DNA of 64,000 bases, taken from an uncultured virus (IMG/VR IMGVR_UViG_3300042934_000354) (taxonomy: Duplodnaviria; Heunggongvirae; Uroviricota; Caudoviricetes). The stretch lies in the IMG/VR virus record IMGVR_UViG_3300042934_000354. One strand, written 5' to 3'. The stretch's first letter is position 1; every line of letters begins with the position of its first letter. The position numbers and the translations under genes are program-made. The notes under the pieces were generated by a model. It was given only the letters and a program-made list of their open reading frames with translations. It was not told the origin of the DNA and searched no databases. Of the stretch, positions 15,827-33,027 are shown one piece after another.

Positions 15827-15864
15827 TACGGATATTATACCAAAACTTTAGGAGGTAGTACACA

Positions 15865-17287: not shown

Positions 17288-17299
17288 CGGAGGTGACTT

Positions 17300-17632
17300 A
17301 TGGCAATCGACATCATCCAGATTAACCAAGAAATCTATGCGGCCTCTCAGCGACTGAGCAAGGCCGCAGACACTCTGTACGCGCTGGGCAAGTCAAAGGC
17401 TGAGTCCGAGCAGGCGTACCGCGTCAAGCTGGCGCAGGAAATGATCAAGCTGAAGACCGAAGGCATGAGCATCGGCATGATCGGTGATGTAGCCAAGGGT
17501 AATGTCGGGGATTACCTATTCAAGCGAGACTATGACGAAACCATTTGGAAGGCTGCTATAGAGTCCATTGGAGCCATTCAGACACAGATATCTGCATTAC
17601 AGTCCATCATCAAATATCAAAATGAGGTGTGA
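17300..17632 (+). CDS. Helical hypothetical protein
   Basis: GGAGG SD, 110 aa. Confidence 0.7.
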   Translation: MAIDIIQINQEIYAASQRLSKAADTLYALGKSKAESEQAYRVKLAQEMIKLKTEGMSIGMIGDVAKGNVGDYLFKRDYDETIWKAAIESIGAIQTQISALQSIIKYQNEV

Positions 17633-18051
17633 CCATGCGAAAGAAGCCCAAAAAGGAAGTGATGCCCTGGAGACAGGGCGTCCTTTCCCACCATCAGCGC
17701 GGCAGCATGAAGAGAGGTGACGCTACAAAAGTTACCTGGGAGGTTAGGCAGGAGGTTAACAGGCGATCCATGGAGCTGCGCGGAACGGATATCCCCTGCT
17801 GCGAGAAATGCGGGACCACAAAGAACCTCACAAAGGCACACATCGTCAACGCCAGCCAAGGCGGTTTAGGTTACGATCCGGCTAACATTATGAATCTCTG
17901 CGGTACGCATGGATTAACAGATACATGCCATCACAAAAGTGACAACTCATATACCGGCCGGCAGTGGAAGAAACAATACGGCGCGATGCTGCGGCTCTAT
18001 TACAGCGAGGGTAACGGTAAAAACTATTGGAGTTATAAGGAGGAAGCCTGA
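17629..18051 (+). CDS. HNH-like endonuclease
   Basis: CEKCG...AHI...GG....N...LC......CH. Confidence 0.7.
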   Translation: MTMRKKPKKEVMPWRQGVLSHHQRGSMKRGDATKVTWEVRQEVNRRSMELRGTDIPCCEKCGTTKNLTKAHIVNASQGGLGYDPANIMNLCGTHGLTDTCHHKSDNSYTGRQWKKQYGAMLRLYYSEGNGKNYWSYKEEA

Positions 18052-18287
18052 TGAAACTGTGGGATCAATTCCTTGAATTGAAAGCTCAAATCCACAACAT
18101 CACCATAGACGAAGATAAACGGCACGCAGACGTTCGTTTCCTCCGGTCCGTTGAATCTATCGAGAGAACCTTGAAACGCTCTCTCACAGGATCTGAGTAC
18201 CGTATCCTGTTCACTTTGGACGATCCGCAGGCTGAGATTGTTAAAAATCTACTGAAAGAGGCGAAAGAGAATGGGCAGAGAGATTAA
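18051..18287 (+). CDS. Hypothetical protein
   Basis: Homolog 61425-61646. Confidence 0.7.
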   Translation: MKLWDQFLELKAQIHNITIDEDKRHADVRFLRSVESIERTLKRSLTGSEYRILFTLDDPQAEIVKNLLKEAKENGQRD

Positions 18288-18696
18288 ATTTAGAGCATGG
18301 GATAACGAAAATAAGTGTTTTTTCGCGGATACCAACAGAGCGTATGATAATGTAATCGAGCAATTGCTGATATCTCCAGCAGGTGACATCAACCTTCGCA
18401 AAATGAACGGAATGTACCACGAGTCAATGTTCCCGGGGCGGTTCGTATTGCAGCAATACACCGGACTCAAGGATATTGACAGCCGTGATATCTACGAAGG
18501 TGATATATGTGAGGCCGAGCAAGTGCTCTATCCACTTACTGGAACTCGTACAGGGATCGTGAAATATCATGACGGTTCGTACCTGCTTGAAGATTTAAAC
18601 GGATTGGATGGAGATTTTCTGTTCAGTGAAACAGCAGAAACTAGGATCATCGGCAACATCTACGAAAACCCCGAACTTTTGGAGGTCACCCCATGA
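18271..18696 (+). CDS. YopX-family protein
   Basis: REIKFRAWD...QYTGLKD...IYEGDI...IGNIYENPELL. Confidence 0.92.
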   Translation: MGREIKFRAWDNENKCFFADTNRAYDNVIEQLLISPAGDINLRKMNGMYHESMFPGRFVLQQYTGLKDIDSRDIYEGDICEAEQVLYPLTGTRTGIVKYHDGSYLLEDLNGLDGDFLFSETAETRIIGNIYENPELLEVTP

Positions 18697-18833
18697 AACA
18701 ACTCGTAACCCGTGATCAGCACGGCACCATATGCACCACCCGGGAAGAGACACTTCCCACCTTGAACGAAATGCTGCTACGTGTGAGCGTGGCCCTACTG
18801 ATCCTTGCTGCGGCACTGGCGGTGATTCTATGA
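18693..18833 (+). CDS. Small C-terminally anchored membrane protein (46 aa)
   Basis: ATGA coupling; conserved at 62052-62192. Confidence 0.7.
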   Translation: MKQLVTRDQHGTICTTREETLPTLNEMLLRVSVALLILAAALAVIL

Positions 18834-18991
18834 GAGAACAAATCGCTATGTGGAAGGAATTCATCACCGTATATACCACAGCCTTAGCAGAGGCAGAGAA
18901 ATACGGTGATGTGGGCGGCACAGAGTGGAACAAGCACATGATTGACTTTTACCAGGAGAAGATTGACGAGGCGGAAAGGCAGAGTGCTTAG
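18830..18991 (+). CDS. Hypothetical protein
   Basis: Coupled ATG; weak homolog 62619-62813. Confidence 0.6.
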   Translation: MREQIAMWKEFITVYTTALAEAEKYGDVGGTEWNKHMIDFYQEKIDEAERQSA

Positions 18992-19206
18992 TCCGGGACG
19001 TGCTCAAGCAGATCACCAGGTTGACACTTGAAATATACACATAACTTGTTAAGGGTATCGTAGTCGATGCCCTTTCCTTCACCATCATATAGCTTCGTCA
19101 GCGTTTTCCTGGTGATGTTCGTTTCTTTCTCAAGAGCTGAGAAACTTTTTATCTTATTAACACCCATTAGTTCAGATAGTTTCACTTTTATCATAGTTAC
19201 CACCAT
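18988..19206 (-). CDS. HTH_26 (YozG-like) regulator
   Basis: TLNKLC.YF.CQPGDLLE; homolog 62810-63043. Confidence 0.88.
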   Translation of the reverse strand: MVVTMIKVKLSELMGVNKIKSFSALEKETNITRKTLTKLYDGEGKGIDYDTLNKLCVYFKCQPGDLLEHVPD

Positions 19207-19329
19207 TTCATTGATTAATTAATTCTATCATATCCATGGTTACGCAAAAATAAATGATTCAATAATAAACTGCGTACTACTGTACACATTATGCGTATTA
19301 TAGTACACTGTAGTTATAGGAGGTGCACG

Positions 19330-19503
19330 ATGATGCTAGTTGATGTAAAACAGATTGGTAATCGGCTTGGAGTTAGCAGAGGCACCGTCTTTCGTCTGAT
19401 GAGAGAAGGGATGCCACACAAGAAGCTCACGCCGCGCACTCTGAGATTTGATGAAGACGAAGTGCTTGAGTGGGTCGAAAAAATTCAGAAGAAGGCTGTT
19501 TAG
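19330..19503 (+). CDS. AlpA/Xis-like winged-helix protein
   Basis: LGVSRGTVFRL...GMP....RF...EV.EW; homolog 63160-63330. Confidence 0.8.
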   Translation: MMLVDVKQIGNRLGVSRGTVFRLMREGMPHKKLTPRTLRFDEDEVLEWVEKIQKKAV

Positions 19504-19514
19504 GTGGTGTCCAT

Positions 19515-20312
19515 ATGGACGGATGGATAAAGCTTCATCGGAAGATTAGGGATAACCCTGTTTTCAACGACATGAATTTATTCCGGTTATGGATGATTTG
19601 TCTCACTGAAGCAACACACAAAGAGCATGATCAACTGGTCGGAAAACAGATCGTAAAGTTGCTGCCAGGAGAGTTCGTTACCGGACGTTTTGACCTTGCT
19701 GAAATGTACAATCGTGGGTTAAAGAAAAAAGATCAAAAACCACCAACTTCTATCTGGAGATGGTTAGAAACTTTAGAAAACAACGATTTTCTGGTCATCA
19801 AATCGAACAACAAATTCTCAGTAGTAGCAGTACTTAAATGGCTAGAATATCAATCTGATGGTCAACAAAGTGGTCAACAAGTGGTCAACAAGCGGTCAAC
19901 AGATGGTCAACAAGTGGTCACAAACAAGAATGTAAAGAATGTAGAGAATGTTGAGAATGTTGAGAATGAAGATAATTTAAAAACTTTGGCGGAAGTTACC
20001 GCCATGTATGATCCAGAGTTTGAACTGTTCTGGATGGAATACCCTTCACAAAGAAGAAGGGATAAAGCTAAGTCTTATACCATTTGGAAAAAGGAAGTAA
20101 AGGCCATCCCCAAAGATCAGTTAACCGAATGTGTTAAACGATACGCCAAGGATAAACGAGCAATTGGGAATGATGGTAAATACGCTAAGATGCCAACTAC
20201 ATTTCTAAACGCAAAAACATATAAAGACTATTTAACGGGAGGGGAAAACTATGCACGCGACAGACTTTCTGAAGGCTCTACCGGAAAATACTCAGAATTT
20301 ATTATTGAGTGA
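19515..20312 (+). CDS. Phage replication initiator / replisome organiser
   Basis: GWIKLHRKI N-terminus, internal iterons, FELFW.EYP...K...PTTFLN C-terminus. Confidence 0.88.
   Translation: MDGWIKLHRKIRDNPVFNDMNLFRLWMICLTEATHKEHDQLVGKQIVKLLPGEFVTGRFDLAEMYNRGLKKKDQKPPTSIWRWLETLENNDFLVIKSNNKFSVVAVLKWLEYQSDGQQSGQQVVNKRSTDGQQVVTNKNVKNVENVENVENEDNLKTLAEVTAMYDPEFELFWMEYPSQRRRDKAKSYTIWKKEVKAIPKDQLTECVKRYAKDKRAIGNDGKYAKMPTTFLNAKTYKDYLTGGENYARDRLSEGSTGKYSEFIIE
19859..19968 (+). repeat. Replication-origin iterons
   Basis: Six ~11-bp GGTCAACAA(GT) repeats, then 9-bp AGAATGT repeats, inside the initiator gene. Confidence 0.8.
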
Positions 20313-21090
20313 TCCTATTGTGGAGCATTGGGGATGTTGTGTCGTCTGCAAAAAATTGCTCGGATATAAAGAGTATTTCGTCCTAGGTAGAACTAAGAGA
20401 TTGCCGATTCATTGCGATTGCGAGATAGCTTATGACAAACGAATGAAGGAAATTGAAGAACGCAAGGTAAGGTTATTATCCGTTCAAAAGACATTTAACC
20501 GTTTCAATCTCATACCGGAATCATTAGAAAATGCTGGATTTAAAAATTTCACAGTAAGACCAGGAACAGAGAAATGCCTTCAGCTTGCGAAAGAGTTTTA
20601 TGTGAATTTCGAAAAAGAAAAGATGGGATATGTATTCTTCGGGAGCGTTGGTAATGGAAAGAGCCATCTAGCAAGAGCAATACAGCGTTCTCTTGATGCG
20701 GATGGATGGCCCACTCTATTTCTGGATTGGCCTAAACTTGCTGACCTCACAAGAAAAGCGATTAGTGACAAGAGTATTAATATTGGTTCAATCGTGCAGG
20801 CCGCAATCAATGTGGATATGCTGGTGCTGGATGATATAGGAACCGGACATATGACGGATTACGAATTCAAAACAGTAGCTTTTCCTTTAATAAACGGAAG
20901 GCAGGGGAAGAAAACAATTTATACCAGCAACCTAGACCCGGATCGACTGGAAGCTTGGTTTGCTGCTGATAAAGATGGAAAACCGTTAGACGAAGATGGG
21001 AGATGCATTGATAGGATCATAGGTTCATGCAGATTTGTATTGAATAAGGCAACAAGCATGCGGCGTGAGAGAGCAAAAATAATCGAATGA
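20251..21090 (+). CDS. DnaC/IstB-like helicase loader ATPase
   Basis: Walker A GSVGNGKSH, Walker B LVLDDIG, TSNL. Confidence 0.92.
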   Translation: MHATDFLKALPENTQNLLLSDPIVEHWGCCVVCKKLLGYKEYFVLGRTKRLPIHCDCEIAYDKRMKEIEERKVRLLSVQKTFNRFNLIPESLENAGFKNFTVRPGTEKCLQLAKEFYVNFEKEKMGYVFFGSVGNGKSHLARAIQRSLDADGWPTLFLDWPKLADLTRKAISDKSINIGSIVQAAINVDMLVLDDIGTGHMTDYEFKTVAFPLINGRQGKKTIYTSNLDPDRLEAWFAADKDGKPLDEDGRCIDRIIGSCRFVLNKATSMRRERAKIIE

Positions 21091-21094
21091 GAGG

Positions 21095-21409
21095 ATGATT
21101 TTAATGGAAATCAATATTAAATTTCCGCAGTTGTTCTGTTTTCAATTAGTGAAAGATACAAAAACAAATAAATTAAACGTGTCAGCTATGCCAATGGGCA
21201 ACAAAGTAAAGAGAGAAAACATTAAATTCAGATCTGTAAAAAGTTACTCATGGGATGGACTAACACATTTTGCTGTCATTAGTGTTGAGGAAATGAATAA
21301 CCATGATGAACTACGGGACGAGTTAAGAAGATTGCAAGATCTTTGGGTCATAGATATAGCAAATCCATTCATAGTGGATGTTTCGAATGATGATTTAATA
21401 ATCAAGTAA
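21095..21409 (+). CDS. Hypothetical protein
   Basis: ORF in the early operon. Confidence 0.55.
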   Translation: MILMEINIKFPQLFCFQLVKDTKTNKLNVSAMPMGNKVKRENIKFRSVKSYSWDGLTHFAVISVEEMNNHDELRDELRRLQDLWVIDIANPFIVDVSNDDLIIK

Positions 21410-21477
21410 TGCTGGGACCGGACCGCAGACCACAAAGCAAGAGTGAACCGGCTTAAATAAGAGAGGATGGATGAACA

Positions 21478-22164
21478 GTGAGTTATTACGATGAGGATTT
21501 TTACTGTGAACCGAGTGAGTTTGAACAGCAAGTAAACGAATTCAAAGAATCTTTGATGAATGCCGTGAAGGATGAACATAAAGCAGAGATTGAACGGCTG
21601 CGGAAAAAAAATATTGAATTACAAGATGTTAAAAAGAACATTGACACAATTAAACGTGATTACAACCAAAAGGTTAGTGAATTAGAAATTCAGAAACGAA
21701 ATCTAAAAAATGAGGTGCGCCGTGAGCGACTACAAGAACTAATGGGTGATTTTATGGCCGAGTTGTTCTCTCCAAGTAGGGATCGGAAAAGCGGACCGAA
21801 ATGTGATAAGTGCAACGACAAGAGACGTATTACTTTTCTATCTCCGTCAGGAAAGGAAATGGAAGAGGTTTGCACATGCAGCAACAACATTATATTTTTC
21901 AAACCAACCGCAAATATATGCTCTTCATTTGCAGTTAGGAACGGGGAATTTATAGCTTGGTATAAATCTTACTCGATTGATAGATCAGACGGCATGGAAT
22001 TAGAATCATTGGGAGTTTCTAGTGTTGCTAAATTCATTTGGTCTGGTGAGAGTTTCGAGAAAATCGAAGAACGACACCACAATGTTTACTTCAGAACCTT
22101 GGAAGATTGTCAGGCATACTGTGACTGGTTGACCGAACAGGAAAATAAAAAGGTGAGCGCATGA
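21478..22164 (+). CDS. Coiled-coil/Zn-ribbon hypothetical phage protein
   Basis: CDKC...CTC motif; SD present. Confidence 0.7.
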   Translation: MSYYDEDFYCEPSEFEQQVNEFKESLMNAVKDEHKAEIERLRKKNIELQDVKKNIDTIKRDYNQKVSELEIQKRNLKNEVRRERLQELMGDFMAELFSPSRDRKSGPKCDKCNDKRRITFLSPSGKEMEEVCTCSNNIIFFKPTANICSSFAVRNGEFIAWYKSYSIDRSDGMELESLGVSSVAKFIWSGESFEKIEERHHNVYFRTLEDCQAYCDWLTEQENKKVSA

Positions 22165-22295
22165 ACGCTCCAATCGACGACTACGACCTATACGACAAAG
22201 ACTTCGCGGCCTGGTGGCGCAAGGGGCTGGAATCCTTCGGGATGGACACGAGCATCGTGGATGAATGGGAACGTGATCAGGCTGAGGCAGCATAA
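22161..22295 (+). CDS. Small acidic protein (44 aa)
   Basis: ATGA coupling; MNAPIDDYDLYDKDFAAWW... Confidence 0.5.
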   Translation: MNAPIDDYDLYDKDFAAWWRKGLESFGMDTSIVDEWERDQAEAA

Positions 22296-22312
22296 CAAGG
22301 GAGGAAACAGGG

Positions 22313-22582
22313 ATGAAGAAGATGAGTAATGGCGAACGTGCACAATTCGTAGGGAAAAAAATTATTGAGGCTACGGAAAATGACAAGACGATGGAGGACT
22401 TAACACAAACGCTGCTGGCTATGAGTTACACACTTGGTAGCATGACATGCGAGTTTCCGAAGGATAAGCGCCCGGAATTGCTGATGTTGATGTGCGAGAT
22501 GGTGGGAAAAGGACATATGGACGTTTCAAAAGGTATGGGAGAGCCAAGTGATCTGCAGATCATCAGAGGACATAGGGATTAG
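22313..22582 (+). CDS. Hypothetical protein
   Basis: GGGAGG SD. Confidence 0.65.
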   Translation: MKKMSNGERAQFVGKKIIEATENDKTMEDLTQTLLAMSYTLGSMTCEFPKDKRPELLMLMCEMVGKGHMDVSKGMGEPSDLQIIRGHRD

Positions 22583-22682
22583 AGCTAATACAAGCCCCAC
22601 ACAGGCGATAAAACCGCAAGGCAAGGCACAAGTTAGGGTATGACCAATCAAGCGCTCTACGGGGCGTATAGAAGGCGAGAGG

Positions 22683-22964
22683 ATGAAGGGAATGATCAGA
22701 ACAATGGTGCTGTTAGAAGACGGAAGTAGCAGAATGGTGACGATGACTGTGGATATGATAGGAAAACTCGCTAAAACGATAAGTGAAACGGGAATTGAAC
22801 ACATGAGAATTGCATCACAAGAAGTATTGACGGTCGTGGGATTTATGGTGATTGGCAAAAAGACTGGTGAGCGAGTGATTGTTTTGCCGAAGGCCCCCGA
22901 ATCGACCGAATCACCCAGCGACAGCGGCAGCCGTATAGAGGGGTCTGGGGGTTCCTATGAATAA
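22683..22964 (+). CDS. Hypothetical protein (C-terminus runs through the repeated motif)
   Basis: ORF track; SD. Confidence 0.5.
   Translation: MKGMIRTMVLLEDGSSRMVTMTVDMIGKLAKTISETGIEHMRIASQEVLTVVGFMVIGKKTGERVIVLPKAPESTESPSDSGSRIEGSGGSYE
22886..22947 (+). repeat. Structured repeat motif, copy 1
   Basis: GCC-GAA-GGC..CGAATC-GACCGAA..ACCCA-GC-GACA-GC-GGCAGCCG. Confidence 0.7.
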
Positions 22965-23247
22965 ACTAACAGAGATCAAACGCCAATACGAAGGATTCAC
23001 TAAGGACCCTAAAACGTATGTAGCCATGCTGTCAATGGAGGAACTAGGCTACCTCCTTTCTCTCCTAGAAGAAAAGGACAAAGCCCTAGCGTTCTACGCA
23101 GACGAAAAGTTGTATGAGCAAGAACTGATGTACTTTGACGATGAGCAAACAGATAGTTATTTTGAAGCGCCGGATATTATGGATGATCACGGAACTATCG
23201 CCCGTAAAGCCCTTAATACATCCTCTAACAACGAAGGAGAGAAATGA
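22957..23247 (+). CDS. Hypothetical protein
   Basis: Coupled accessory ORF. Confidence 0.65.
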   Translation: MNKLTEIKRQYEGFTKDPKTYVAMLSMEELGYLLSLLEEKDKALAFYADEKLYEQELMYFDDEQTDSYFEAPDIMDDHGTIARKALNTSSNNEGEK

Positions 23248-23712
23248 ATGACACCAGAACGGATAGAAGAGATTGAGTTTTGGTACAGGGTAGCAGAAAA
23301 AAGTGTCTTGATAAAGTACGTGAGGGACCTGCTGGCTGCTCTAGAAGAGGCAGAGCAACAAAAAGAATCGTTATGTCGGAAATTAACAAAGCAGGAGCTT
23401 ATCCACGTTAACTATACTCGTCAATTAAAAGAAGCAGAAAAAGAAAACGAACACATTCATCGCTTGCTTAGTGATGAAGATGAATGCGCTCTAGAAGATC
23501 CGCATGACTTTTACAGCCGAAAATATTTTAGTGAGCGAAACGCTGCAGTTGAAGAAATGCAAAAATCAATTAAGCGGTTGGCAGAGGCACAACAGACCAT
23601 AGACCGACTAACCGCCGCATTAATTGCTGAACGGGACGATGCCATCACTTGGGACGGTATAGGCACGGTAAACCGGATCAATAAGGTGCTGGAAGGGGAG
23701 ACACAGCCATGA
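23248..23712 (+). CDS. Coiled-coil hypothetical protein
   Basis: Coupled accessory ORF. Confidence 0.65.
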   Translation: MTPERIEEIEFWYRVAEKSVLIKYVRDLLAALEEAEQQKESLCRKLTKQELIHVNYTRQLKEAEKENEHIHRLLSDEDECALEDPHDFYSRKYFSERNAAVEEMQKSIKRLAEAQQTIDRLTAALIAERDDAITWDGIGTVNRINKVLEGETQP

Positions 23713-24014
23713 GTAAAGAACAACAATTTTTGAATGACCTTCATCGTGGATACGAAATAAGAAGGATTGAAACAGTTATCGAAACTCTTGATGCAGGGGT
23801 TTTTAAAAGCCTGTCATCATATGCCGATGCTGAACATTTCCTAAGATTTGCATTAACAGAGATTCGTAGATTAAAAAAAGAAAATGCAGATGTAGAACAA
23901 CGGGTGCAGCGGCACGAAAAAGCTTTAAACGAAATAATTGCTTACAGTACAGATGAAAATGCTGTAGATGTCGCTAGTGTATCGATGGGATATGTGGAAG
24001 GTGAGCAGCCATGA
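23709..24014 (+). CDS. Hypothetical protein
   Basis: ATGA coupling. Confidence 0.65.
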   Translation: MSKEQQFLNDLHRGYEIRRIETVIETLDAGVFKSLSSYADAEHFLRFALTEIRRLKKENADVEQRVQRHEKALNEIIAYSTDENAVDVASVSMGYVEGEQP

Positions 24015-24403
24015 CACAGGTACAGACAATGACCAACCCGGAGCTTAACCGGGCGCTGGCGGAGTTGATGGGGTACACGGTAGAACCTAGCGTTCAAAGT
24101 GGAGTCTACCGCCTGATGAAAGGCGGGAAGATACAAGCGACATCCAGTGTGCCGGAGGAATTGATCTGGTCCTACGCTCCCGATTATGCCGGTGACCCTG
24201 CTGCCTCTCTAGAGGTACAGACAAAGGCTATAGAACAAGATCCTGCTGGATATATCGATAATCTGCAACTGGTCAAGACAGGACAAACGATGGATGTAGG
24301 ATATTGGACGCATCCAGATATTGCAATGCTACTCACCGCCAGCCCCCGAGAGAGGGCAGAGGCGGCATATATCACGCTACAGGAGGCGAAAGAGAATGGA
24401 TAG
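24011..24403 (+). CDS. Phage ABA-sandwich-like protein
   Basis: ELNRALAELMGY...PDY..D..AS..V pattern. Confidence 0.6.
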   Translation: MTQVQTMTNPELNRALAELMGYTVEPSVQSGVYRLMKGGKIQATSSVPEELIWSYAPDYAGDPAASLEVQTKAIEQDPAGYIDNLQLVKTGQTMDVGYWTHPDIAMLLTASPRERAEAAYITLQEAKENG

Positions 24404-24593
24404 ATATGAGAATCACCATGATGAATGGCGCGAAGAAGATAAAATGCTGAAGCTTGGAATTAATCCAGACTCAAGAAAATGTACCGAGTGCGGAGATAAC
24501 ATTGATGATCTATACCCTGAGTTCGATACATGCCATTCATGTTTCTTTGAGAAAGCGAGTGAAGAAAATGCCGAACGAACAGGGACGATATAA
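24396..24593 (+). CDS. Small Zn-binding protein
   Basis: AGGAGG SD; CTECG...CHSC. Confidence 0.6.
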   Translation: MDRYENHHDEWREEDKMLKLGINPDSRKCTECGDNIDDLYPEFDTCHSCFFEKASEENAERTGTI

Positions 24594-24906
24594 CCGGCAG
24601 GAAGTACTTGAAAGCAAATTGCCATACTTTATACCGCGTTCGCAACTCTGGAATGGACCTGTTTATCCCTTCGCGGTCCTACTGAGTAAGACACGATGCA
24701 AGGAGTTAGGCGTGCCGATCCTTAAAGATGGACATGAGCAGCCGTCAGCGTTCCTATATTCACCTAATGCCGGTAGAGGCACTAACGATCTGAATCACCG
24801 TTATCACGCCTTATATGACCGGACAGACGCTTACGAGGCGATTAAAGATAGGCTGCATCCACGCGAGATTATGGGTACACGGCCCGATGATGGTAGTAAG
24901 CAGTAG
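24568..24906 (+). CDS. Hypothetical protein
   Basis: Likely start ATG 24568 (MPNEQGR). Confidence 0.6.
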   Translation: MPNEQGRYNRQEVLESKLPYFIPRSQLWNGPVYPFAVLLSKTRCKELGVPILKDGHEQPSAFLYSPNAGRGTNDLNHRYHALYDRTDAYEAIKDRLHPREIMGTRPDDGSKQ

Positions 24907-24935
24907 ACGCATACGGCGCAGGAAGGGGAGGTAAT

Positions 24936-25754
24936 ATGTCAGTCCCGAGAATACTTCAATACCCGGGCAGCAAATGGAGCATGTATGACTGGATTAATGG
25001 TTACATGCCTTCCACACAGGCATTTCCGACCTATGTTGACTTGTTCTTCGGATCCGGCGGCGAGTTTTTTAATAAGCCGCGCCATCCGCTAGAGACGATT
25101 AATGATTTGGACGGGAATGTGGTTAATTTATTCAAAGTCATTCGGGACGATCCGGAAAAGTTAGCTCACGTGATGGAATGGACGCCGTACAGTCGGGAGG
25201 AGTACTACAGATCCTATGACGATGCAGATACGGACATTGAAAAAGCTCGGCGCTTCCTGGTGCGTACATGGCAAGCCATCGGAGCAAAAACAAGTGACCG
25301 GACCGGATGGAAAAGCGTCATACAGTTTGATAAAGCGCCCAATAAGACATTCGCCAAGGCATGGATGGAAGTGCCTGACAAGATAATGGCAGTCACCGAA
25401 AGGCTGAAAGGCGTTCAAATCGAGCAGCAACCAGCAGTGCAGATACTTCAGAGATACAAGCATAACGATGTTTTGATTTATGCGGATCCTCCTTATGTGC
25501 TATCAACCAGGTCGAAACGGATGTATAGGCACGAAATGAAGGATTCCGATCACATTGAATTGCTGGAAGCCTTGAAGGAGCACCCGGGTCCGGTTTTGTT
25601 GTCTGGATATGACCATCCTCTGTACAACGATATGCTGCATAACTGGAGGCGGGAAGAGTTAGCGGCTTATGCGGATTCAAAACGGCCACGGACTGAGGTT
25701 CTTTGGCTAAATCCAGTAGCAGCAGAACACAGCGCCCAGATAACGTTGTTTTGA
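24936..25754 (+). CDS. DNA adenine methyltransferase (D12/Dam class)
   Basis: YPGSK, DLFFGSG, NDLD, YADPPY. Confidence 0.93.
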   Translation: MSVPRILQYPGSKWSMYDWINGYMPSTQAFPTYVDLFFGSGGEFFNKPRHPLETINDLDGNVVNLFKVIRDDPEKLAHVMEWTPYSREEYYRSYDDADTDIEKARRFLVRTWQAIGAKTSDRTGWKSVIQFDKAPNKTFAKAWMEVPDKIMAVTERLKGVQIEQQPAVQILQRYKHNDVLIYADPPYVLSTRSKRMYRHEMKDSDHIELLEALKEHPGPVLLSGYDHPLYNDMLHNWRREELAAYADSKRPRTEVLWLNPVAAEHSAQITLF

Positions 25755-25825
25755 TGAACAGTACGAAAATACAGGGGACAGAGAGGGTATACAGCCCTCC
25801 TCTCCCACTAAGGGAGGAACAAACA

Positions 25826-26134
25826 GTGAACGTGTATAAAGTCAACGACTACTGGATTGCTGCAAAGGACGCTGATTCGGCATTCGTACAGTATTTAGAA
25901 GAGACAGATGGCATGGAGAACATGGAACCTGATGATATCGCAGAAGGAGAAGAGACAGAAATAACCGTGAGCATTTACAGATTAACATCACATGAAATTG
26001 AAGTGCAAACCGTCCCTTGTTGCGAGGATGGGTGCGATCGCTGCGATGGATTGAATGAACAACTTTACGACACATATCAAGAGTTACTGGCGCGGAGAAC
26101 TGATTTCCCGTGCGTCCTAGCAAAAGAACTTTAG
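25826..26134 (+). CDS. Acidic Cys-rich hypothetical protein
   Basis: GGGAGG SD before GTG 25826. Confidence 0.65.
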   Translation: MNVYKVNDYWIAAKDADSAFVQYLEETDGMENMEPDDIAEGEETEITVSIYRLTSHEIEVQTVPCCEDGCDRCDGLNEQLYDTYQELLARRTDFPCVLAKEL

Positions 26135-26147
26135 GGGAGGAAGCCCA

Positions 26148-26792
26148 ATGACACAAACACCATCGAGGGACTGGCAAAAGGATATGGAGATAGCCGAGCA
26201 GCTAAAATTATGGGACGTAGATCCGGGAGGCGAGGAGGACGGCGCGGCCTTTTACACGATGGATGCCGATGGTATTTACACTACTGTCCGCGCTGACAAC
26301 ATGCTTGGCAAGGATGCCGAATTGCTTCATGAGGCGCTATATGCCCTTCCCTACTGGCTCCAAGAAGCCAAGAAACAATTCGATTTAGCAGAAGAGCTGA
26401 ACAATGAAGTATTCTCGGCAAATTGCGAAAGAGAAACCTTCGATCAAACGATAAAAGGTGGACTGGAGCGAGCGCTCAAGACAACGGACCCTTACGAGAT
26501 GCTGAAAGTAATACAAAGCTTGTATCGCACCCTATACCCAGATACCCCAGCACCCACCCAGACTGCCGGAATAAAGGTTAAATGCATACGAGATAATTAT
26601 TCCGGTGAAGGGAAGTTGTCGTTCATTTCCGGAAAAACCTATGAAGCTGATAAAACCGATGGCGACATTATCGTAGTTAACGAGCAAGGCAGCCGGCACA
26701 TAATCAAAACAGAAACGGGCTTGCATGAATTTTTCAGTACGTACTTTGAATTCATCACCCCAGCACCCAAGGAGGGCAGCCATGAAAATTAA
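26148..26792 (+). CDS. Mosaic hypothetical protein
   Basis: SD; internal segment bounded by 13-bp direct repeats. Confidence 0.65.
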   Translation: MTQTPSRDWQKDMEIAEQLKLWDVDPGGEEDGAAFYTMDADGIYTTVRADNMLGKDAELLHEALYALPYWLQEAKKQFDLAEELNNEVFSANCERETFDQTIKGGLERALKTTDPYEMLKVIQSLYRTLYPDTPAPTQTAGIKVKCIRDNYSGEGKLSFISGKTYEADKTDGDIIVVNEQGSRHIIKTETGLHEFFSTYFEFITPAPKEGSHEN

Positions 26793-26916
26793 ATCAGAAG
26801 TGACTATGTCAATCAAAGGATTCTTACACGATATGGGATTCACCGAAAGCGCAAAGTTAATCAGCGTTGAAGTCAAAGGTAACAAGGTGGTCATCACTGC
26901 GGAGGAGGGTGCTTAA
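26782..26916 (+). CDS. Small hypothetical protein
   Basis: AAGGAGG SD. Confidence 0.55.
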   Translation: MKIKSEVTMSIKGFLHDMGFTESAKLISVEVKGNKVVITAEEGA

Positions 26917-27179
26917 TGACACTCACAAGGGAAGAGAAGATAGACATTCTGAATTCGTTCTTTTTGCTGGAATGGGATTCATCAAGCAATGTGATTGACT
27001 ATATCTTCATCAATAACAACAGAACTAACGTTGATAAGCTGATGAATATCGGCGTGCCGGTGGATGAAATCAAAGCGAAGACAAGCGTTGCAGGAATAGA
27101 CATTGCTGAATTTGTCTTTAGTTATGGGGAAGCCGAGTGGCTATCTGAGACTGGAGAATTCTTAGACTATATACCTTGA
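26916..27179 (+). CDS. Hypothetical protein
   Basis: TAATG coupling. Confidence 0.65.
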   Translation: MTLTREEKIDILNSFFLLEWDSSSNVIDYIFINNNRTNVDKLMNIGVPVDEIKAKTSVAGIDIAEFVFSYGEAEWLSETGEFLDYIP

Positions 27180-27181
27180 TT

Positions 27182-27242
27182 GGCCGTCAGGCCTCCGATT
27201 CGACCGCACTACTCAGCGTCAGCGGAGGCCGACACAGGTCTG
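27182..27242 (+). repeat. Structured repeat motif, copy 2
   Basis: GGCC-GTCA-GGCC..CGATTC-GACCGCA..ACTCA-GC-GTCA-GC-GGAGGCCG. Confidence 0.75.
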
Positions 27243-27347
27243 GTACTTAACTTATAAGGGGGCAGAGACAACTGCTTGGTTGTTAAATTACCGGAAATTA
27301 AGGAATTTGGTTGTTACGCTAATTTACCCCAAAGGGAGAGGATACAC

Positions 27348-27761
27348 ATGAGCAAAGCGCCGATGTTCAAAGCCTGGGACATACGCCGAAAAAGGATGCG
27401 GGTGGTTCGAGAGATTAAATTCTTCGCTGATGGCATACGGGTGGATGTGGCCAAGCGTGAGGAAGATTACGAACCTCTACTCAATATGTCTGGATACGAT
27501 CCGGAATTCATACTTCTCAGGCACGTGGGGCTTGAAGGTGAAAATGTAAAAGAAGCATATGAAGGAAGTATCCTTAAAATTCCCGATTTATATGAAACCC
27601 CTGAAAATACAGAAATGACATATCATTACGAAAAAATTACTCATTCAGAAGGGACCTTTAAAGTTGGAGGATTTCCTATAGGTGAAGATTGGGATTATCT
27701 AAACGAAGCGGCAGAAGTTGTGGGAAATATATATGAGAATCCCGGAGTTGTCTGGGTATAA
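27348..27761 (+). CDS. YopX-family protein (second copy in P2)
   Basis: FKAWD...YEGSI...EVVGNIYENP. Confidence 0.85.
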   Translation: MSKAPMFKAWDIRRKRMRVVREIKFFADGIRVDVAKREEDYEPLLNMSGYDPEFILLRHVGLEGENVKEAYEGSILKIPDLYETPENTEMTYHYEKITHSEGTFKVGGFPIGEDWDYLNEAAEVVGNIYENPGVVWV

Positions 27762-27776
27762 GGGGGAGAAGAGGAT

Positions 27777-28124
27777 ATGAGCGAATGGATGACAGGCCAC
27801 TTAAATATCGGCAAGAAAATCACTGTGTACGGTAGAAATGCTATGAGTTGGGGAGTAAATATCCAATCAAAGAAATACGGATATATTTGCTTCAGATTAC
27901 CTTTCAGGTGTTTCGGCAGATGGGAACCACTTTACTTTTACTGCAGCCCTAATGCAACTCCTTGGGCGGCAACGTTCATGATAGGTAAAAAGCATGACAG
28001 CCGTGATTGGGCGTTATCTCGGGTTCGCCGGGTGGCACTAGGTCATAACTTCTATTACGATTCCGAAAACGATGACAACGGAAATTATGCAAGGCTGCGA
28101 CAAATAAACGACAGGGTGCTATAA
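27777..28124 (+). CDS. Hypothetical protein
   Basis: SD; 115 aa. Confidence 0.65.
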   Translation: MSEWMTGHLNIGKKITVYGRNAMSWGVNIQSKKYGYICFRLPFRCFGRWEPLYFYCSPNATPWAATFMIGKKHDSRDWALSRVRRVALGHNFYYDSENDDNGNYARLRQINDRVL

Positions 28125-28189
28125 GGCCGAAGGCCATCGAGTCAGACCGAAATACTCAGGCGGAGCCGGTGGCCGTATAGGGCTATCTG
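28125..28189 (+). repeat. Structured repeat motif, copy 3
   Basis: GGCC-GAA-GGCC..CGAGTC-AGACCGAA..ACTCA-GGC-GGA-GCC-GGTGGCCG. Confidence 0.75.
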
Positions 28190-28218
28190 CTCCCCATAAA
28201 GAAAGGAACAACAAACCT

Positions 28219-28428
28219 ATGATCAATTGGATAGAATACGACCCAGCGAATCCGCCGAGTGACTTTGAGATATATCTTATCTACCAGGAGTACAACGGGA
28301 AAGACGAGGTCTGTACAGCTTACCGGATGGGCGGACAATGGTTCACTTGCCAAGGGAGTGAAGCAGTAGAGGGCATCACTTATTACGGAGACTTCAACCT
28401 ACCAGGGGAGGATAAAGCAGATGACTAA
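28219..28428 (+). CDS. Small phage protein (DUF551-like)
   Basis: WI....P...YL...W.....IT pattern. Confidence 0.55.
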   Translation: MINWIEYDPANPPSDFEIYLIYQEYNGKDEVCTAYRMGGQWFTCQGSEAVEGITYYGDFNLPGEDKADD

Positions 28429-28885
28429 GTACCGGAAGAAGCCAGTAGTAATCGAAGCCGTTCAATGGTTTGAAGGGGATCAAGTGGAGGGCGTACAGGA
28501 TTTAGCCATGCTATCAGAAATGTATTTCAGCAAGTCGGCCGCCGATGGCAGATATGTCGTTAAGACGCTGGAAGGCATGATGCAGGTAAGCCCGGGCGAT
28601 TGGATCATTACTGGTGTCAAAGGCGAGAAGTATCCGTGTAAACCAGATATCTTTGAATTGACCTATGAACCGGCTGAGCCCACACCACCAGTACAGCCAG
28701 ACATTAAGCCGGGGGATAACGTGGAACACAAACATAGACCAGAGTGGGGCATAGGTACAGTGATGGCGGCCGCAGATAACGCTTTAGTATTTTTCAATGC
28801 CCGTAATTTTGATGATCAATTAACAGAATGTGAGTTTACTGAACTGGAGGTAATAACCGATGATCAGCCAACAAAAGAAGCATAA
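28421..28885 (+). CDS. Phage protein (PGDYG-like) with C-terminal SH3-like domain
   Basis: KYRKKPVVIEAVQW...TLEG...SPGDWII.GVKGE.YPCKPDIF..TYE. Confidence 0.8.
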   Translation: MTKYRKKPVVIEAVQWFEGDQVEGVQDLAMLSEMYFSKSAADGRYVVKTLEGMMQVSPGDWIITGVKGEKYPCKPDIFELTYEPAEPTPPVQPDIKPGDNVEHKHRPEWGIGTVMAAADNALVFFNARNFDDQLTECEFTELEVITDDQPTKEA

Positions 28886-29183
28886 GCGCGTCACCCCTAT
28901 GCCGGTAGTATCCAGTTTCCCACCACCGAACCGTGAGACGGTCCACAGCATAGTGACCACATACACGTTAACGCCGGAAGAACTGGCCGAAGTGATTGCC
29001 AAGTACGGACCACCAACACGGCCATACGGAAGCTACAGCAGCATAGCAACACCGCCAACACGCCAGCAGGGAGGTGCCAAGCGTGGTACAGTTCGAGATA
29101 AAAGTAAAACCAATGGGAAGCGTACGAATGACGCAAAAGGGAAAGTGGACGGACCCGGCAGCACAAAGGTATCTGGACTATAA
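28860..29183 (+). CDS. Hypothetical protein overlapping rusA
   Basis: TYTLTPEELAE...KYG motif; start uncertain. Confidence 0.45.
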   Translation: MISQQKKHKRVTPMPVVSSFPPPNRETVHSIVTTYTLTPEELAEVIAKYGPPTRPYGSYSSIATPPTRQQGGAKRGTVRDKSKTNGKRTNDAKGKVDGPGSTKVSGL

Positions 29184-29487
29184 GAAACTGCTGGGATACG
29201 AAGCACGCAAGCACATTAAGACACCGTTAGATCAGCCTATCATCGTCACAGTGGACTTTTATTATCAGATCCCTACCTCATTTACGAAAGCCAAGAAGAA
29301 GCTCATACAGGAAGGTAAGCTACGTCCTGTGGTCAAGCCGGACATCGACAATGCCGCCAAAGGGATCATGGACTCACTCAACAAGATAGCTTATCTGGAT
29401 GATAACCAAGTCGTGGGGCTACACACAAACAAGTACTATGCAGACGAGGCACGAATCGTAATCCAAATTGAGGAGTGGATCGCATGA
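29083..29487 (+). CDS. rusA: RusA-family Holliday junction resolvase
   Basis: KPDIDN..K...DSLN...DDNQV. Confidence 0.92.
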   Translation: MVQFEIKVKPMGSVRMTQKGKWTDPAAQRYLDYKKLLGYEARKHIKTPLDQPIIVTVDFYYQIPTSFTKAKKKLIQEGKLRPVVKPDIDNAAKGIMDSLNKIAYLDDNQVVGLHTNKYYADEARIVIQIEEWIA

Positions 29488-29681
29488 GAGCAGCATGGAT
29501 CAACCTTGTCACTGGATATAAGCTTCTGGACGACTATGGAGCCCATAGAGGCACTATCATCACCTTGGACAAGCAAACACACCAGCGTAGCTTAAGGGCG
29601 CTGTATGAGCCTCCTGTGGTGGTATACACGGAAGGCAGCAAGATCCTGCACAAAGGTGAGATTGATCGCAAAACGGCATGA
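29484..29681 (+). CDS. Hypothetical protein
   Basis: ATGA coupling. Confidence 0.55.
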   Translation: MRAAWINLVTGYKLLDDYGAHRGTIITLDKQTHQRSLRALYEPPVVVYTEGSKILHKGEIDRKTA

Positions 29682-29789
29682 TTAATTCTATGAAAACGTG
29701 AGAAAACGAAAGATATTTGTACAATAGTCGCGGGAAATAGTGTATAATATAGGTAATAATCAATTATTTGAGCGAAAAGAGGGGTATTC

Positions 29790-30785
29790 GTGGAAATATC
29801 GGAATTGCAAGATCAAATCGAGCAGCTACAGTATGAGTTGAACATGGAAAATCAGCGCGGTGGGTTGAAGGATGCAGCCAAGGTAGAGGGCCTGGAATCA
29901 CAGATTGCTGAATTGAAAGCTGAGATGGAAAAACCAGAACTTCCCCCAGAGATTGTAAAGGCAAATGAGGAAGCAGAACTGTTCGGGACAGCCTTTGAAC
30001 CATTCTGCAAAAACACCCTATCTTATAACGTGATCCGCGAAAAAGTATTCGCTAAAACGTATGCCCTGATGGACGCTTTAACTGATGCACAAGTGCAGGC
30101 GGAAGAAACAGCGGCTATCACGAACAGCGAACTATCTGAACTATCACAACAGATTGAGGACCGTGACGCGATTATCTCCGGGCTGCGCAAGGAACTGTTT
30201 GAAGCGAAGGAACTGGCAGAGGACAATGCCAACAAGCGTGACGCAGCAGGCCGTGAGCTATCGGAAGCCTCACAGACCATAGATGCGCTTAAGGATAAGC
30301 TTGCAGCTGCCGAAGTAGAGCCGCCGAAGAAGAGAACAAACGTGGAAGGATCCGAAGAAGCGTCCGAAGAGCTCAAAAAGACACTACCCGTTATATACGA
30401 TGTGGAAGAACTGGACCACCGCAGAAGCCGGTTCCGGGCGAAATTTGCAGAGACAGACGAATCTTTCGAAGACTGGTTTATTTACAAAGAGGCCAGATAT
30501 GTGGAGGTGTCCGCTGAACAAGCGGTGACATTTCGAACCGAGTACCTTGCAGCGCAACAACCGGCGCCTGTTGAAGAGGATCATTCATACGATATTCCCG
30601 ACAGCACAGACGAGGTAGAAACGACTTACACCGCACCTGCCTTTCGTGGCGAAGACGAGAACGCCGCAGAGCCTGGATTGGCTGCTGAGGCATCAACAGT
30701 GGCTGGATCGCCAGTTACACGCGAAGAATTCGAAGAGCTCAAAGCCAGAGTCGCCCAGATCGAATCCAATAGATCGGTTGCTTAA
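29790..30785 (+). CDS. Acidic coiled-coil protein with its own promoter and terminator
   Basis: TATAAT upstream; GGCGGCTCCGGTCGCC-TTTT downstream. Confidence 0.75.
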   Translation: MEISELQDQIEQLQYELNMENQRGGLKDAAKVEGLESQIAELKAEMEKPELPPEIVKANEEAELFGTAFEPFCKNTLSYNVIREKVFAKTYALMDALTDAQVQAEETAAITNSELSELSQQIEDRDAIISGLRKELFEAKELAEDNANKRDAAGRELSEASQTIDALKDKLAAAEVEPPKKRTNVEGSEEASEELKKTLPVIYDVEELDHRRSRFRAKFAETDESFEDWFIYKEARYVEVSAEQAVTFRTEYLAAQQPAPVEEDHSYDIPDSTDEVETTYTAPAFRGEDENAAEPGLAAEASTVAGSPVTREEFEELKARVAQIESNRSVA

Positions 30786-30837
30786 GAAGATAAATGAATG
30801 AGGCGGCTCCGGTCGCCTTTTCCCCTAAGGTGATGAA

Positions 30838-30981
30838 ATGAACGTAGGCGATAGGGTCCAGCACAAGTCAGGCTTAACCGGCAGGATCGTAAGCATCACA
30901 GAGTGGGTATATGTATTGATAGACGAGTCGATGACGGTAGTACCGTATTATGCAGTGAGCCTGGAAGTGATTGAGGATTAA
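30838..30981 (+). CDS. Small SH3/KOW-like protein (47 aa)
   Basis: MNVGDRVQHKSGLTGRIV; SD AAGGTG. Confidence 0.55.
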   Translation: MNVGDRVQHKSGLTGRIVSITEWVYVLIDESMTVVPYYAVSLEVIED

Positions 30982-31001
30982 TCTATAGGGGGGATTAACA
31001 C

Positions 31002-31268
31002 ATGATCAAGTTCCAAGTAGGGGAAAGTGAAATGATCATGCAAGATGGTGAAGATGCTGAATCATTTATATCTCAAATGGTAGCAAAAGCCATGGTAGAG
31101 CGTCAGAACGGAGACTTTAGGATTACTGCAGATGATGCTGTTGTTAGGATTGAAAAACATCCAGCGAGTGTAGATGATGCTCACGAGACATTGGCAGAGT
31201 ACTTAAAGGGTAAATGCCGTATGATCGTTCTGAGGTCCGTTAGAACAAGACATCTTGAACGTTATTAA
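31002..31268 (+). CDS. Hypothetical protein
   Basis: SD GGGGG. Confidence 0.6.
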   Translation: MIKFQVGESEMIMQDGEDAESFISQMVAKAMVERQNGDFRITADDAVVRIEKHPASVDDAHETLAEYLKGKCRMIVLRSVRTRHLERY

Positions 31269-31280
31269 GGGGGGATAACC

Positions 31281-31700
31281 ATGAACTGGAAGGAGTCATA
31301 CGCTGATACGTGTGCGGAGCTGCAGATACTTCGTCTCAGGGAAAAGGAAGTCAAGCGAAGAGTTGAGTTGGCATATAAGTACACAGTAATCGGCAGCATG
31401 CCATCATCAGGGCCATACGTGCATATCTCTCTAGATAAAGGGCTGGAGAAGATTGAGAGAGAACAGCATGAATTGGAATGCATCCGGGAAGAGATCGACC
31501 GTGTGCAGAAGATGAAGAATGACATGGACGTGGAGATTGCTAAGTTCACCGGACTGGAAAATATGATCCAAAGCAGACGACTTGCAGGTAAAAAGTACAA
31601 GGAAATTGCAATGGAATTAGGCTACAGTGAAAGCCATATTCGCACTTATTGCTACAAAAGAGGATACAAAAAGGATACACAAAGTACAAATGCATCGTGA
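31281..31700 (+). CDS. Late transcriptional activator (RinA/ArpU-like, sigma70 region-4 HTH)
   Basis: KKYKEIAMELGYSESHIR; last early gene before the packaging module. Confidence 0.75.
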   Translation: MNWKESYADTCAELQILRLREKEVKRRVELAYKYTVIGSMPSSGPYVHISLDKGLEKIEREQHELECIREEIDRVQKMKNDMDVEIAKFTGLENMIQSRRLAGKKYKEIAMELGYSESHIRTYCYKRGYKKDTQSTNAS

Positions 31701-31717
31701 TATTATAGTAGTATGAG

Positions 31718-32098
31718 GAATTGGCGATCAGTGACCCGGGGACTGCCCCTATCGCCGATTCCCATCACTTGGATGATTCACTCCTACCCCTTGGCGCTGG
31801 GAGACTGGCGCTACATTTTAGCAACACCCATCCATAACGCGCTAATGCGCACACTTCGATGTTGGGGATGGTTTGCATATAGGCCTGCATGTACGTTATG
31901 ACGGTTAAGCTATGCTTAGCTTAGTACTTGTGGGCTATCTCATAGTGATAACGCCGGTCGGCCTATGGGATTACAGGGATCGGGCATAAAAGGGAAACAC
32001 AAGGCAAAGCATCAAGGGGCCGAGTGCACGCGCATGACGGGGTTTAGGGCGCGCTGAATCTGCAAGAGGTAACGGTATACGCCGTTGCCTTTTTTGTT
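31718..32098 (+). ncRNA. Putative structured late-leader RNA ending in an intrinsic terminator
   Basis: Several long hairpins with G-U pairs on the + strand; terminator GGTAACGG-tatacg-CCGTTGCC-TTTTTT. Confidence 0.45.
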
Positions 32099-32103
32099 TT
32101 TAT

Positions 32104-32163
32104 CTCTGCATCGATTCGACCGAATTACCCAGTGAAACGGGGGCCGCAATGAGGCATTCAGAG
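32104..32163 (+). repeat. Structured repeat motif, copy 4
   Basis: CGATTC-GACCGAA..ACCCA-GT-GAA-AC-GGGGGCCG. Confidence 0.65.
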
Positions 32164-32223
32164 TATTACTTATCTATTATATTTATCATTATGATGACTA
32201 TAGTGATCGAGGTGGTGAGATAG

Positions 32224-32442
32224 ATGAAACTACATCCAGATGGAACGGTTGAAGGTACGCCAGAGGAAATTATGAAGTATCAGCAGCTTAAACCAGTGGG
32301 AGTAAAGCCTATTGGCGCAGCAACAAGCATTGGATCACCACTGAGTGGCGCCGTAACGTATCCGGGAGACGGCCAAACGTATATATCAACTAAGCCATCA
32401 CAGGCGAGATATGACGCAAATGCGCAGACTACAACAGTATAA
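32224..32442 (+). CDS. Hypothetical protein
   Basis: SD; MKL.PDGTVEGTPEEI. Confidence 0.6.
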   Translation: MKLHPDGTVEGTPEEIMKYQQLKPVGVKPIGAATSIGSPLSGAVTYPGDGQTYISTKPSQARYDANAQTTTV

Positions 32443-32532
32443 GTCTCCGAAATTACGAGTGTTATACTTTGTAAATCGAAAATAGGCGTGAATTATAGCG
32501 CAATTAAGTTAGATTAGAGGGAGGTGAACACA

Positions 32533-33027
32533 ATGGCAGGAGGCAGACCAAGCAAGTACCATTCCAACGTTGAACCGAAACTCCTGCTCATTGAGGCATG
32601 GTGCAGGGACGGATTAACTGTTGAAGATATCGCGGCTAACCTAGAGGTTTCTGCTGCAAGTATGTATGAGTATCAAAAAAAATATCCTGAGTTGTTAGAG
32701 GCCTTAAAAAGGAATAGGGAATTTGCAGACGCGATTGTCGAGAATTCTTTGTACAAACGGGCTCTTGGATATGAATTTGATGAAATCACACACGAACCTC
32801 TATATAACATGCTGGGTGATCCTATATTAAATCCAGACGGAACTCCAAAAGTGGCTGTAACAAAGATTGTTCGTAAGCAAGTGGTACCAGATACTACTGC
32901 TCAAATCTTCTGGCTGAAGAACCGTAAGCCGCAGCAGTGGAGAGATAAGCAAGAGCTTGGCATAGAAGGTGAACTCAACATAAAAGTGTCCTTACCGAAA
33001 GGATTGACCCCAGATGCCGACAATTAA
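32533..33027 (+). CDS. terS: Terminase small subunit
   Basis: GRPSKY...HTH...PDTTAQIFWLKNR.P..WRDK; directly before TerL. Confidence 0.88.
   Translation: MAGGRPSKYHSNVEPKLLLIEAWCRDGLTVEDIAANLEVSAASMYEYQKKYPELLEALKRNREFADAIVENSLYKRALGYEFDEITHEPLYNMLGDPILNPDGTPKVAVTKIVRKQVVPDTTAQIFWLKNRKPQQWRDKQELGIEGELNIKVSLPKGLTPDADN

Follow-up and report, generated by a model that had tools for sequence, protein, structure and literature searches.

A conserved mini-hairpin element at gene borders of temperate Paenibacillaceae phages

The 64,000-nucleotide stretch of an uncultured virus of the Caudoviricetes analyzed here (IMG/VR record IMGVR_UViG_3300042934_000354; hereafter the window, which means this whole stretch) carries four copies of a short structured element at the borders of small accessory genes. 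All four copies are on the + strand, at 22886-22933, 27182-27231, 28125-28175 and 32112-32146, the places at which an earlier inspection of the letters alone (the sequence-only reading) had put them. Our analyses indicated that these copies are members of a real, previously unlisted element of ~45-60 bases that lies between genes of temperate Paenibacillaceae phages. The element is strand-asymmetric and is composed, from 5' to 3', of an optional GC-rich hairpin (H1), a YCGANNC stretch that tolerates insertions of 1-2 nucleotides (nt), an invariant block (GACCGMANNACYCAG), a mini-hairpin (H2) and a 3' block (GGNNGCCG).

Exact matches to the strict 21-nt core of the element (CGANTCRRMCGMANNWCYCAG) were found at 22898, 27196 and 32112, and five matches with up to three mismatches were present in the window compared to 1.30 +/- 1.14 expected. 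Copy 3 has a 1-nt insertion (CGAGTCAGACCG) and was recovered by a profile at 28136-28175. In copy 1, H1 (GCC GAA GGC, 22886-22894) is followed by CGAATC and the invariant block GACCGAATCACCCAG (22898-22918), H2 (GC GACA GC, 22918-22925) and the 3' block GGCAGCCG (22926-22933), and the downstream gene has its ATG at 22957. This copy is contained in an open frame (22683-22964) that spans it and whose end overlaps that ATG; the corresponding frame through the element is also open in G017, G036, L078 and L115, as judged by eye on the sequence. Copy 2 has H1 (GGCC GTCA GGCC, 27182-27193) located 2 nt downstream of a TGA stop codon (27177-27179), CGATTC and the invariant block GACCGCACTACTCAG (27196-27216), and H2 (GC GTCA GC) with the 3' block GGAGGCCG (27216-27231), downstream of which is a YopX gene. 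In copy 3, H1 (GGCC GAA GGCC, 28125-28135) abuts a TAA stop codon (28122-28124) and precedes CGAGTCA, which holds the insertion, with the invariant block GACCGAAATACTCAG (28138-28159), then H2 (GGC GGA GCC) with the 3' block GGTGGCCG (28159-28175). Copy 4 has no H1 and consists of CGATTC and the invariant block GACCGAATTACCCAG (32112-32132) and H2 (GT GAA AC) with the 3' block GGGGGCCG (32132-32146).

These features agree with much of the sequence-only reading, whose consensus was correct for H1 in copies 1-3, for the stems (GC/GC, GC/GC, GGC/GCC and GT/AC) and loops (GACA, GTCA, GGA and GAA) of the small hairpins and for a 3' block of the form GGNRGCCG, as was its remark that a stop codon lies 0-2 nt before two of the copies (copy 3, 0 nt; copy 2, 2 nt). 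Its view that the copies are not terminators was also borne out: none of the four has a GC-rich hairpin with a U-tract, T-runs are absent 3' of every copy, and none of them was reported by a terminator scan. That scan did identify an intrinsic terminator with a 13-bp stem and T-tract (32064-32101, + strand) that closes the early operon just 5' of copy 4. This terminator (32064-32093 in the scan) was top-ranked, with 13 pairs, among three + strand terminator-like sites in 13100-33000, the two weaker sites having 7 pairs each (13289 and 19095), and copy 4 begins 10 nt beyond its tail.

Searches of other sequence collections showed that the element forms a family. When IMG/VR was scanned for the strict core, 66 loci were returned: 37 had the element, a single unrelated coding sequence accounted for 27, and the other 2 were a further chance match. 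The 27 loci (L006, L009-L014 and others) represent a highly conserved, unrelated gene start in viral contigs that matches the 21-nt core by chance and must be filtered from any pattern search for the element. A looser IMG/VR pattern requiring both invariant blocks found 101 loci, 80 of which were retrieved, and 21 chance matches in high-GC coding DNA were removed from the IMG/VR set along with 5 duplicates of those. There were 71 unique instances in IMG/VR phage contigs, which are not independent events as many share descent, and their alignment has 19 invariant columns. With these 71 unique instances elsewhere, the element is far above chance. For genome-level comparisons we used 23 genomes, namely the window and 22 phage records (21 whole and one, G016, represented by its first 40 kb only), and a profile run over them identified 1-4 copies per genome, diverged copies included.

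The sequence-only reading had called the motif unnamed and suggested a covariance model and an Rfam search, both of which were carried out. Rfam 15 gave no match at the gathering score in the whole window, and none over the element at E<=10 in 22000-33000. The covariance model (R1), built from 88 sequences, identified the element in 4/4 Paenibacillaceae genomes with titles (Paenibacillus, Cohnella and Gordoniibacillus) and in 17 of 151 genomes sampled from the family, with 1-5 copies each that were mostly clustered within a few kb, compared to 0/150 genomes sampled from elsewhere in the same class. The restriction to one family is thus defined by four record titles and by the family and class samples. 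In a pattern scan of genome contigs, the only genuine hits among the matches listed were Paenibacillaceae records, and chance matches were abundant in high-GC genomes. The isolated phages of INPHARED yielded no true match, only two chance 26-nt matches in Serratia phages, and megablast of 22000-33000 returned a single unrelated 62-nt match. The accessible parts of the literature on Paenibacillus phage motifs yielded nothing beyond one motif of large lytic Brevibacillus phages (PMC4909266), which is unrelated.

The conservation of the mini-hairpin is one of structure. H2 is formed in 71/71 instances, with stems of 1-4 bp and 18 distinct sequences, and its stem pairs total 42 compared to 24.5 +/- 2.4 in shuffles. 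Such compensatory stem changes confirm the covariation that had been noted from the four copies. The loop is of the G..A type, mostly GNA or GNNA, in 62 of the 71 instances, and in 45 of them H2 has a GC/GC stem and reads literally GCGNAGC or GCGNNAGC. Both of these types are termed "extraordinarily stable" DNA mini-hairpins in the accessible part of PMC13037366, in line with the earlier remark that GNA-loop mini-hairpins are unusually stable in ssDNA (single-stranded DNA). No wobble (G-T) pair occurs in any of the 23 distinct H2 strings, and G-T pairs account for 7 of 185 in the stems. H1 abuts the core in 69/91 unique instances and has 34 distinct sequences. Since H2 ranges from 5 to 12 nt in length, the distance between the invariant blocks differs by as much as 7 nt among instances; a hairpin of variable length that keeps the invariant blocks adjacent implies that the element must be read single-stranded.

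Pairing beyond these small hairpins was less consistent. For the outer stem that the sequence-only reading had proposed to close the element, 70% of cells pair among 81 distinct sequences and the variable middle pair is unpaired in 39/81, and this part of the earlier model was not upheld. An extended helix (CYY/GGN) was rejected, as its middle pair is formed in 49/81 sequences, the other 32 having C.C, U.U or the like. A candidate downstream hairpin (H3) was weak, with a mean z of -0.7 as RNA and -0.1 as DNA, and folding of the element in its entirety gave no unusual stability (mean z about -0.5).

The element typically occupies the few bases between a stop codon and the ribosome-binding site of the next gene. 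By our gene calls, which were made by script and are crude, the stop codon of a long open frame adjoins the element in 41/91 instances, and a T-rich tract, often the tail of a terminator, is located 5' of it in 19/91. Most instances are co-oriented with the downstream gene, whose ribosome-binding site and start codon are usually 2-45 nt downstream among the instances listed; the ribosome-binding site sometimes begins just 2-5 nt 3' of the element. In L103, the GGAGG of the 3' block is 6 nt upstream of the ATG of a small hydrophobic open reading frame (ORF), a spacing that indicates the element can supply a Shine-Dalgarno sequence. The order of terminator then element seen at copy 4 was found again in other phages. 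Four host genomes have an antisense and a sense copy 200-450 bp apart, and in G135 and G052 (the same context as G007) such a pair flanks one small gene. At L360 (1467-1859, minus strand) and L385, an antisense copy is read through by a small, Zn-ribbon-like gene whose start is 13 nt away and whose last codons hold a degenerate sense copy; with a relative in another genome, nothing beyond the element and the initial 8 codons is shared. Genes for D12-class N6-adenine methyltransferases are present in the same accessory region (window 24936-25754; L301 18029-18973), and in G015 such a gene is immediately upstream of the element.

Comparison of related phages showed that the element marks points where homology between them begins, and that it is mostly co-inherited with the gene located 3' of it. 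Across the 23 genomes, 16/46 copies have an onset of homology no more than 25 nt from the 5' edge of the element, compared to 126/1570 (8%) gene-upstream sites used as controls (odds ratio 6.1, p 5.5e-7), so that gene-content breakpoints do coincide with the element, as the sequence-only reading had asked. In terms of homology blocks at the 46 copies, the element and its downstream side only were in common for 17 copies, the upstream side only for 6, both flanks for 2 and none for 24. Similarly, among 4095 instance pairs only the downstream flank was common in 25 and only the upstream flank in 3. Between the window and the circular IMG/VR record G001, which has four copies at equivalent places, the onset of homology is exactly at the element at 22881 and 27182. 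The set contained no orthologous gene pairs with and without the element, and comparison of downstream genes gave two informative empty sites. In these two lineages, a 9-15-bp duplicate of the old stop/ribosome-binding site junction is present on both sides of the element (filled sites G006, L048, L038 and G016p compared to the empty site G018; second lineage, G019). Duplicated junctions beside an empty site in a relative indicated that the element had been inserted into tight junctions. A general target-site duplication was also considered and is unsupported beyond the 4/91 instances with significant flanking repeats, compared to 1.1% of cross pairs. The evolutionary role of the element as a crossover point is our best-supported statement, and the pattern of exchange resembles that of ordinary homologous crossover between copies of a repeat.

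The window has the gene order of a temperate phage around these copies. On the minus strand are genes for a serine integrase with Resolvase, Recombinase and Zn-ribbon domains (10632-12116) and a CI-like repressor (13274-13756), followed by an early promoter-like site (13775-13803) and a cro-like gene starting at 13849. The early region has ERF recombinase, DnaD-like and DnaC-like genes, then a run of small accessory genes, and after the terminator come terS, terL and a portal gene; 3' of copy 4 there are a small ORF at 32224, terS at 32524 and terL at 33014. A sub-threshold Rfam match to tmRNA at 23390-23611 (12.9 bits, gathering score 47, E 0.08) is probably due to chance because ARAGORN identified no tmRNA; it also identified no tRNA. 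The window is composite. Positions 30412-64000 are 100% identical to G001, whereas 1-30411 derive from a different, related phage (83-92% identity in parts), and the integrase-repressor region occurs twice (10518-13498 and 53223-56201, 87% identity). The window therefore represents related prophages in tandem or, alternatively, a chimera assembled from co-occurring variants.

We searched for a protein that might read the element. All-against-all clustering of the 23 genomes identified no regulator common to all. The small sigma-like regulator encoded upstream of copy 4 (31281-31700, + strand) is a candidate but non-constant partner, as its family is present in 16/23 genomes. In G009, a 149-residue ORF (L298 15804-16253) directly 5' of a diverged copy matches the N-terminal domain of GreA/GreB only marginally above threshold (24.8 bits, cut-off 24.5) and is a singleton among the 23 genomes. 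A host regulon or pairing target was not apparent in four host genomes, in which the core at up to one mismatch was at the level of a reversed-pattern control. The consensus sequences of sigma factors, Chi, LexA and Spo0A, as far as they are known to us, showed no consistent match, and this comparison was not used. Based on there being no constant phage protein and no host-chromosome excess of the core, we consider a conserved host machine the likeliest reader.

A known element that ours resembles in its role, and not in its content, is PeSL (promoter-early stem-loop) of T4-type phages. Both are short conserved intergenic cassettes with a stem-loop, and recombination between PeSL copies leads to insertions, deletions and swaps among close relatives, according to the accessible parts of two reports (PMC2839356, PMC4122927); breakpoints are likewise enriched at the present element. 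The PeSL cassette as described in those parts has a strong sigma-70-like promoter and an effective terminator, whereas in the window a promoter scan detected no sigma-70-like site at any of the four copies and there is no U-tract. Judged by eye among the flanks listed, the hexamer downstream of GCCG mostly has G, and not T, as its last base. The PeSL stem-loop follows the upstream gene and acts as a terminator or attenuator, compared to an H1 that is found in 69/91 instances here, with an adjoining stop codon in 41/91 and without a U-tract. The two elements have no sequence relation, and ours belongs to temperate siphophage-like phages of Gram-positive spore-formers.

The reading we favor, and hold tentatively, is that the element may be a portable cassette-border signal of temperate Paenibacillaceae phages, PeSL-like in role, which is read single-stranded in transcription and doubles as a crossover point. 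A conserved host factor, rather than a phage protein, would recognize the single-stranded form while the downstream cassette is being transcribed, its target being either nascent RNA or the non-template DNA strand that is then exposed. The element might then be a leader signal of the antitermination, anti-pausing or processing kind that keeps expression of the cassette independent of the sequence upstream; an RNA element for antitermination or processing had also been raised, as an alternative, in the sequence-only reading. As a repeat of 45-60 bp it would also be a site of homologous crossover for cassette swaps, as PeSL cassettes are in T4-type phages. A transcript-level reading is favored by the common orientation, by the linkage to the downstream gene and by the recurrent order of terminator, element and late genes.

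Other observations weigh against this reading. In 45/71 instances H2 has only 2 bp and a loop of 3-4 nt, and by standard energy rules such 7-8-mers alone are predicted not to fold as RNA; the loops are of DNA mini-hairpin types, the wider pairings are inconsistent and the element as a whole is not unusually stable. A reverse ribosome-binding site is located upstream, with the element antisense to both neighbor genes, in 12/91 instances by rule and in at least 13 by eye among the instances listed. Such antisense copies lie between the stop and ribosome-binding site of opposite-strand genes or within the first codons of a gene, and they are as well conserved as sense copies, which a transcript-level signal does not explain. 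The element is optional, occurring in 1-4 copies per phage at changing places, and a copy precedes the late operon in just 8/16 genomes with the sigma-like gene. The instances that follow a terminator fall in few lineages and so represent few independent events. In addition, the NusG N-terminal family was identified in 0/23 phage records. This last result bears on the comparison with ops, a tiny non-template-strand DNA hairpin in the transcription bubble that recruits the antitermination factor RfaH at the start of long horizontally acquired operons, as outlined in the accessible part of PMC5995543. The present element differs from ops in its length of 45 nt, too long for one bubble, and in having loop bases that are not conserved. 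The ops sequence itself is about a dozen nucleotides long, and its reader is a specialized NusG paralog. A lambda-type nut site would be promoter-proximal, whereas the first copy in the window is 9 kb downstream of the early promoter-like site. A bolder side reading is that the sense and antisense transcripts of one genome would be able to pair over more than 20 invariant bases, giving cross-talk between cassettes.

Several of the same observations are better accommodated by a signal in single-stranded DNA (ssDNA), which is the main rival reading and, in our view, only somewhat less probable than the favored one. The element would be exposed on the lagging-strand or displaced template in phage replication, where two mini-hairpins that resist SSB would show the invariant blocks to the host primase or primosome, which would start the complementary strand in the manner of the G4, St-1 and alpha3 complementary-strand origins or of ssiA and ssiB of RSF1010; crossovers would be a by-product. 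An ssDNA reading is favored by the chemistry of the mini-hairpins, by the scarcity of wobble pairs, by the good conservation of antisense copies and by the priming-site precedents. Besides the literal GCGNAGC or GCGNNAGC strings of H2, H1 is often GGCC-GAA-GGCC. The accessible part of PMC13037366 describes ssi signals as ~40 nt long, with a mini-hairpin of the GCGNAGC, GCGNNAGC or CCGAAGG type and conserved single-stranded flanks, and places such mini-hairpins at the priming sites of G4, St-1 and alpha3, in RSF1010 ssiA (a 40-nt site) and in the N4 hairpin promoters. Those signals are strand-specific and may occur on both strands, as the element does (PMC13037366, same part), and opposite-strand copies, even inside coding sequence, are expected of a strand-specific DNA signal. 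The sense bias would fit a lagging-strand template if replication runs with transcription, and the lack of a constant phage partner and the one-family host range both fit a host enzyme. The phages encode either helicase loaders or DnaB helicase, and no primase of the families searched for was identified (DnaG zinc ribbon, 0/23 phage records; Prim-Pol, 0/23), whereas RSF1010 has its own primase. A copy is directly 3' of the loader or helicase gene in G017 and G036, and other copies are far off. However, ssi signals are located at the origins of ssDNA phages or a plasmid, whereas this element is scattered at gene borders of double-stranded DNA temperate phages. An ssDNA signal also leaves unexplained both the travel of the element with the downstream gene and its flush position after the terminator at the late operon, and the positions of inverted copies, which lie between sense copies in G077, G135 and G103, do not fit one origin. 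We know of no ssDNA priming signal of this kind in double-stranded DNA temperate phages.

The other explanations appear improbable. If the element were a double-stranded promoter for the small sigma-like late regulator, the core would be its recognition sequence and H2 the transcript start, which would account for the order of sigma-like gene, terminator, element and terS/terL in the window, G009, G019, G025, G040, G045 and G048, and for the element being 5' of the sigma-like gene itself in G034, G048 and G021. We do not believe this to be likely, as the sigma-like family is missing from 7/23 genomes (G016 having been searched in the first 40 kb of 68.9 kb) and was found in 12/50 records by single-sequence search. 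Compensatory hairpin changes would be meaningless in duplex DNA, the spacing between blocks is variable, the ribosome-binding site may begin almost at the end of the element, and antisense copies exist in addition to the lack of sigma-70-like sites. We give similarly little weight to the idea of a miniature repeat, selfish or neutral, that recombination carries into tight junctions in either orientation and that is of no benefit to the phage. Its occurrence in both orientations, the optional copy number and the insertion footprints in two lineages are what such a repeat would produce, whereas an invariant core with strictly compensatory hairpin changes across a host family indicates selection on a recognized structure, neither terminal inverted repeats nor a transposase are present, and few instances have significant flanking repeats.

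Most improbable of all, in our assessment, is the inference in the sequence-only reading of an attC-like site, folded as ssDNA, at which a dedicated site-specific recombinase captures and reshuffles cassettes. Integron attC sites are found at cassette borders and their folded single strand is the active form, and the present element likewise coincides with cassette borders and breakpoints and has hairpins of the ssDNA type. However, the long imperfect palindrome of attC, which folds into one hairpin with paired core sites, is absent, as the fold statistics and the failure of the outer stem show, no integron-type tyrosine integrase is near the copies in the window, and the integrase of the window is a serine recombinase at the prophage end. 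The crossover point is not fixed: the 5' part of the element follows the upstream gene and the 3' part the downstream gene, with further joints beyond the element. In addition, the cassettes are not promoterless arrays beside an integrase. Thus, from the sequence-only interpretation, an unnamed, non-terminator family with covarying hairpins at breakpoints was retained, and the attC-like function and the outer stem were not.

Together, these analyses provide a well-defined and testable cis element for a phage group without described regulatory or replication signals, and the 88 aligned sequences and the working covariance model make it searchable at once. The element would be a Gram-positive temperate-phage counterpart to the PeSL idea of border cassettes that drive module shuffling, with a measured enrichment of breakpoints. 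As its hairpins are of the type described as "extraordinarily stable" in DNA, it offers a natural system for examining whether such hairpins act in vivo as DNA, through priming or through recognition of the non-template strand, or as RNA. If the ssi reading were correct, these phages would dictate where complementary-strand synthesis starts, via the host primase or primosome on the displaced strand.

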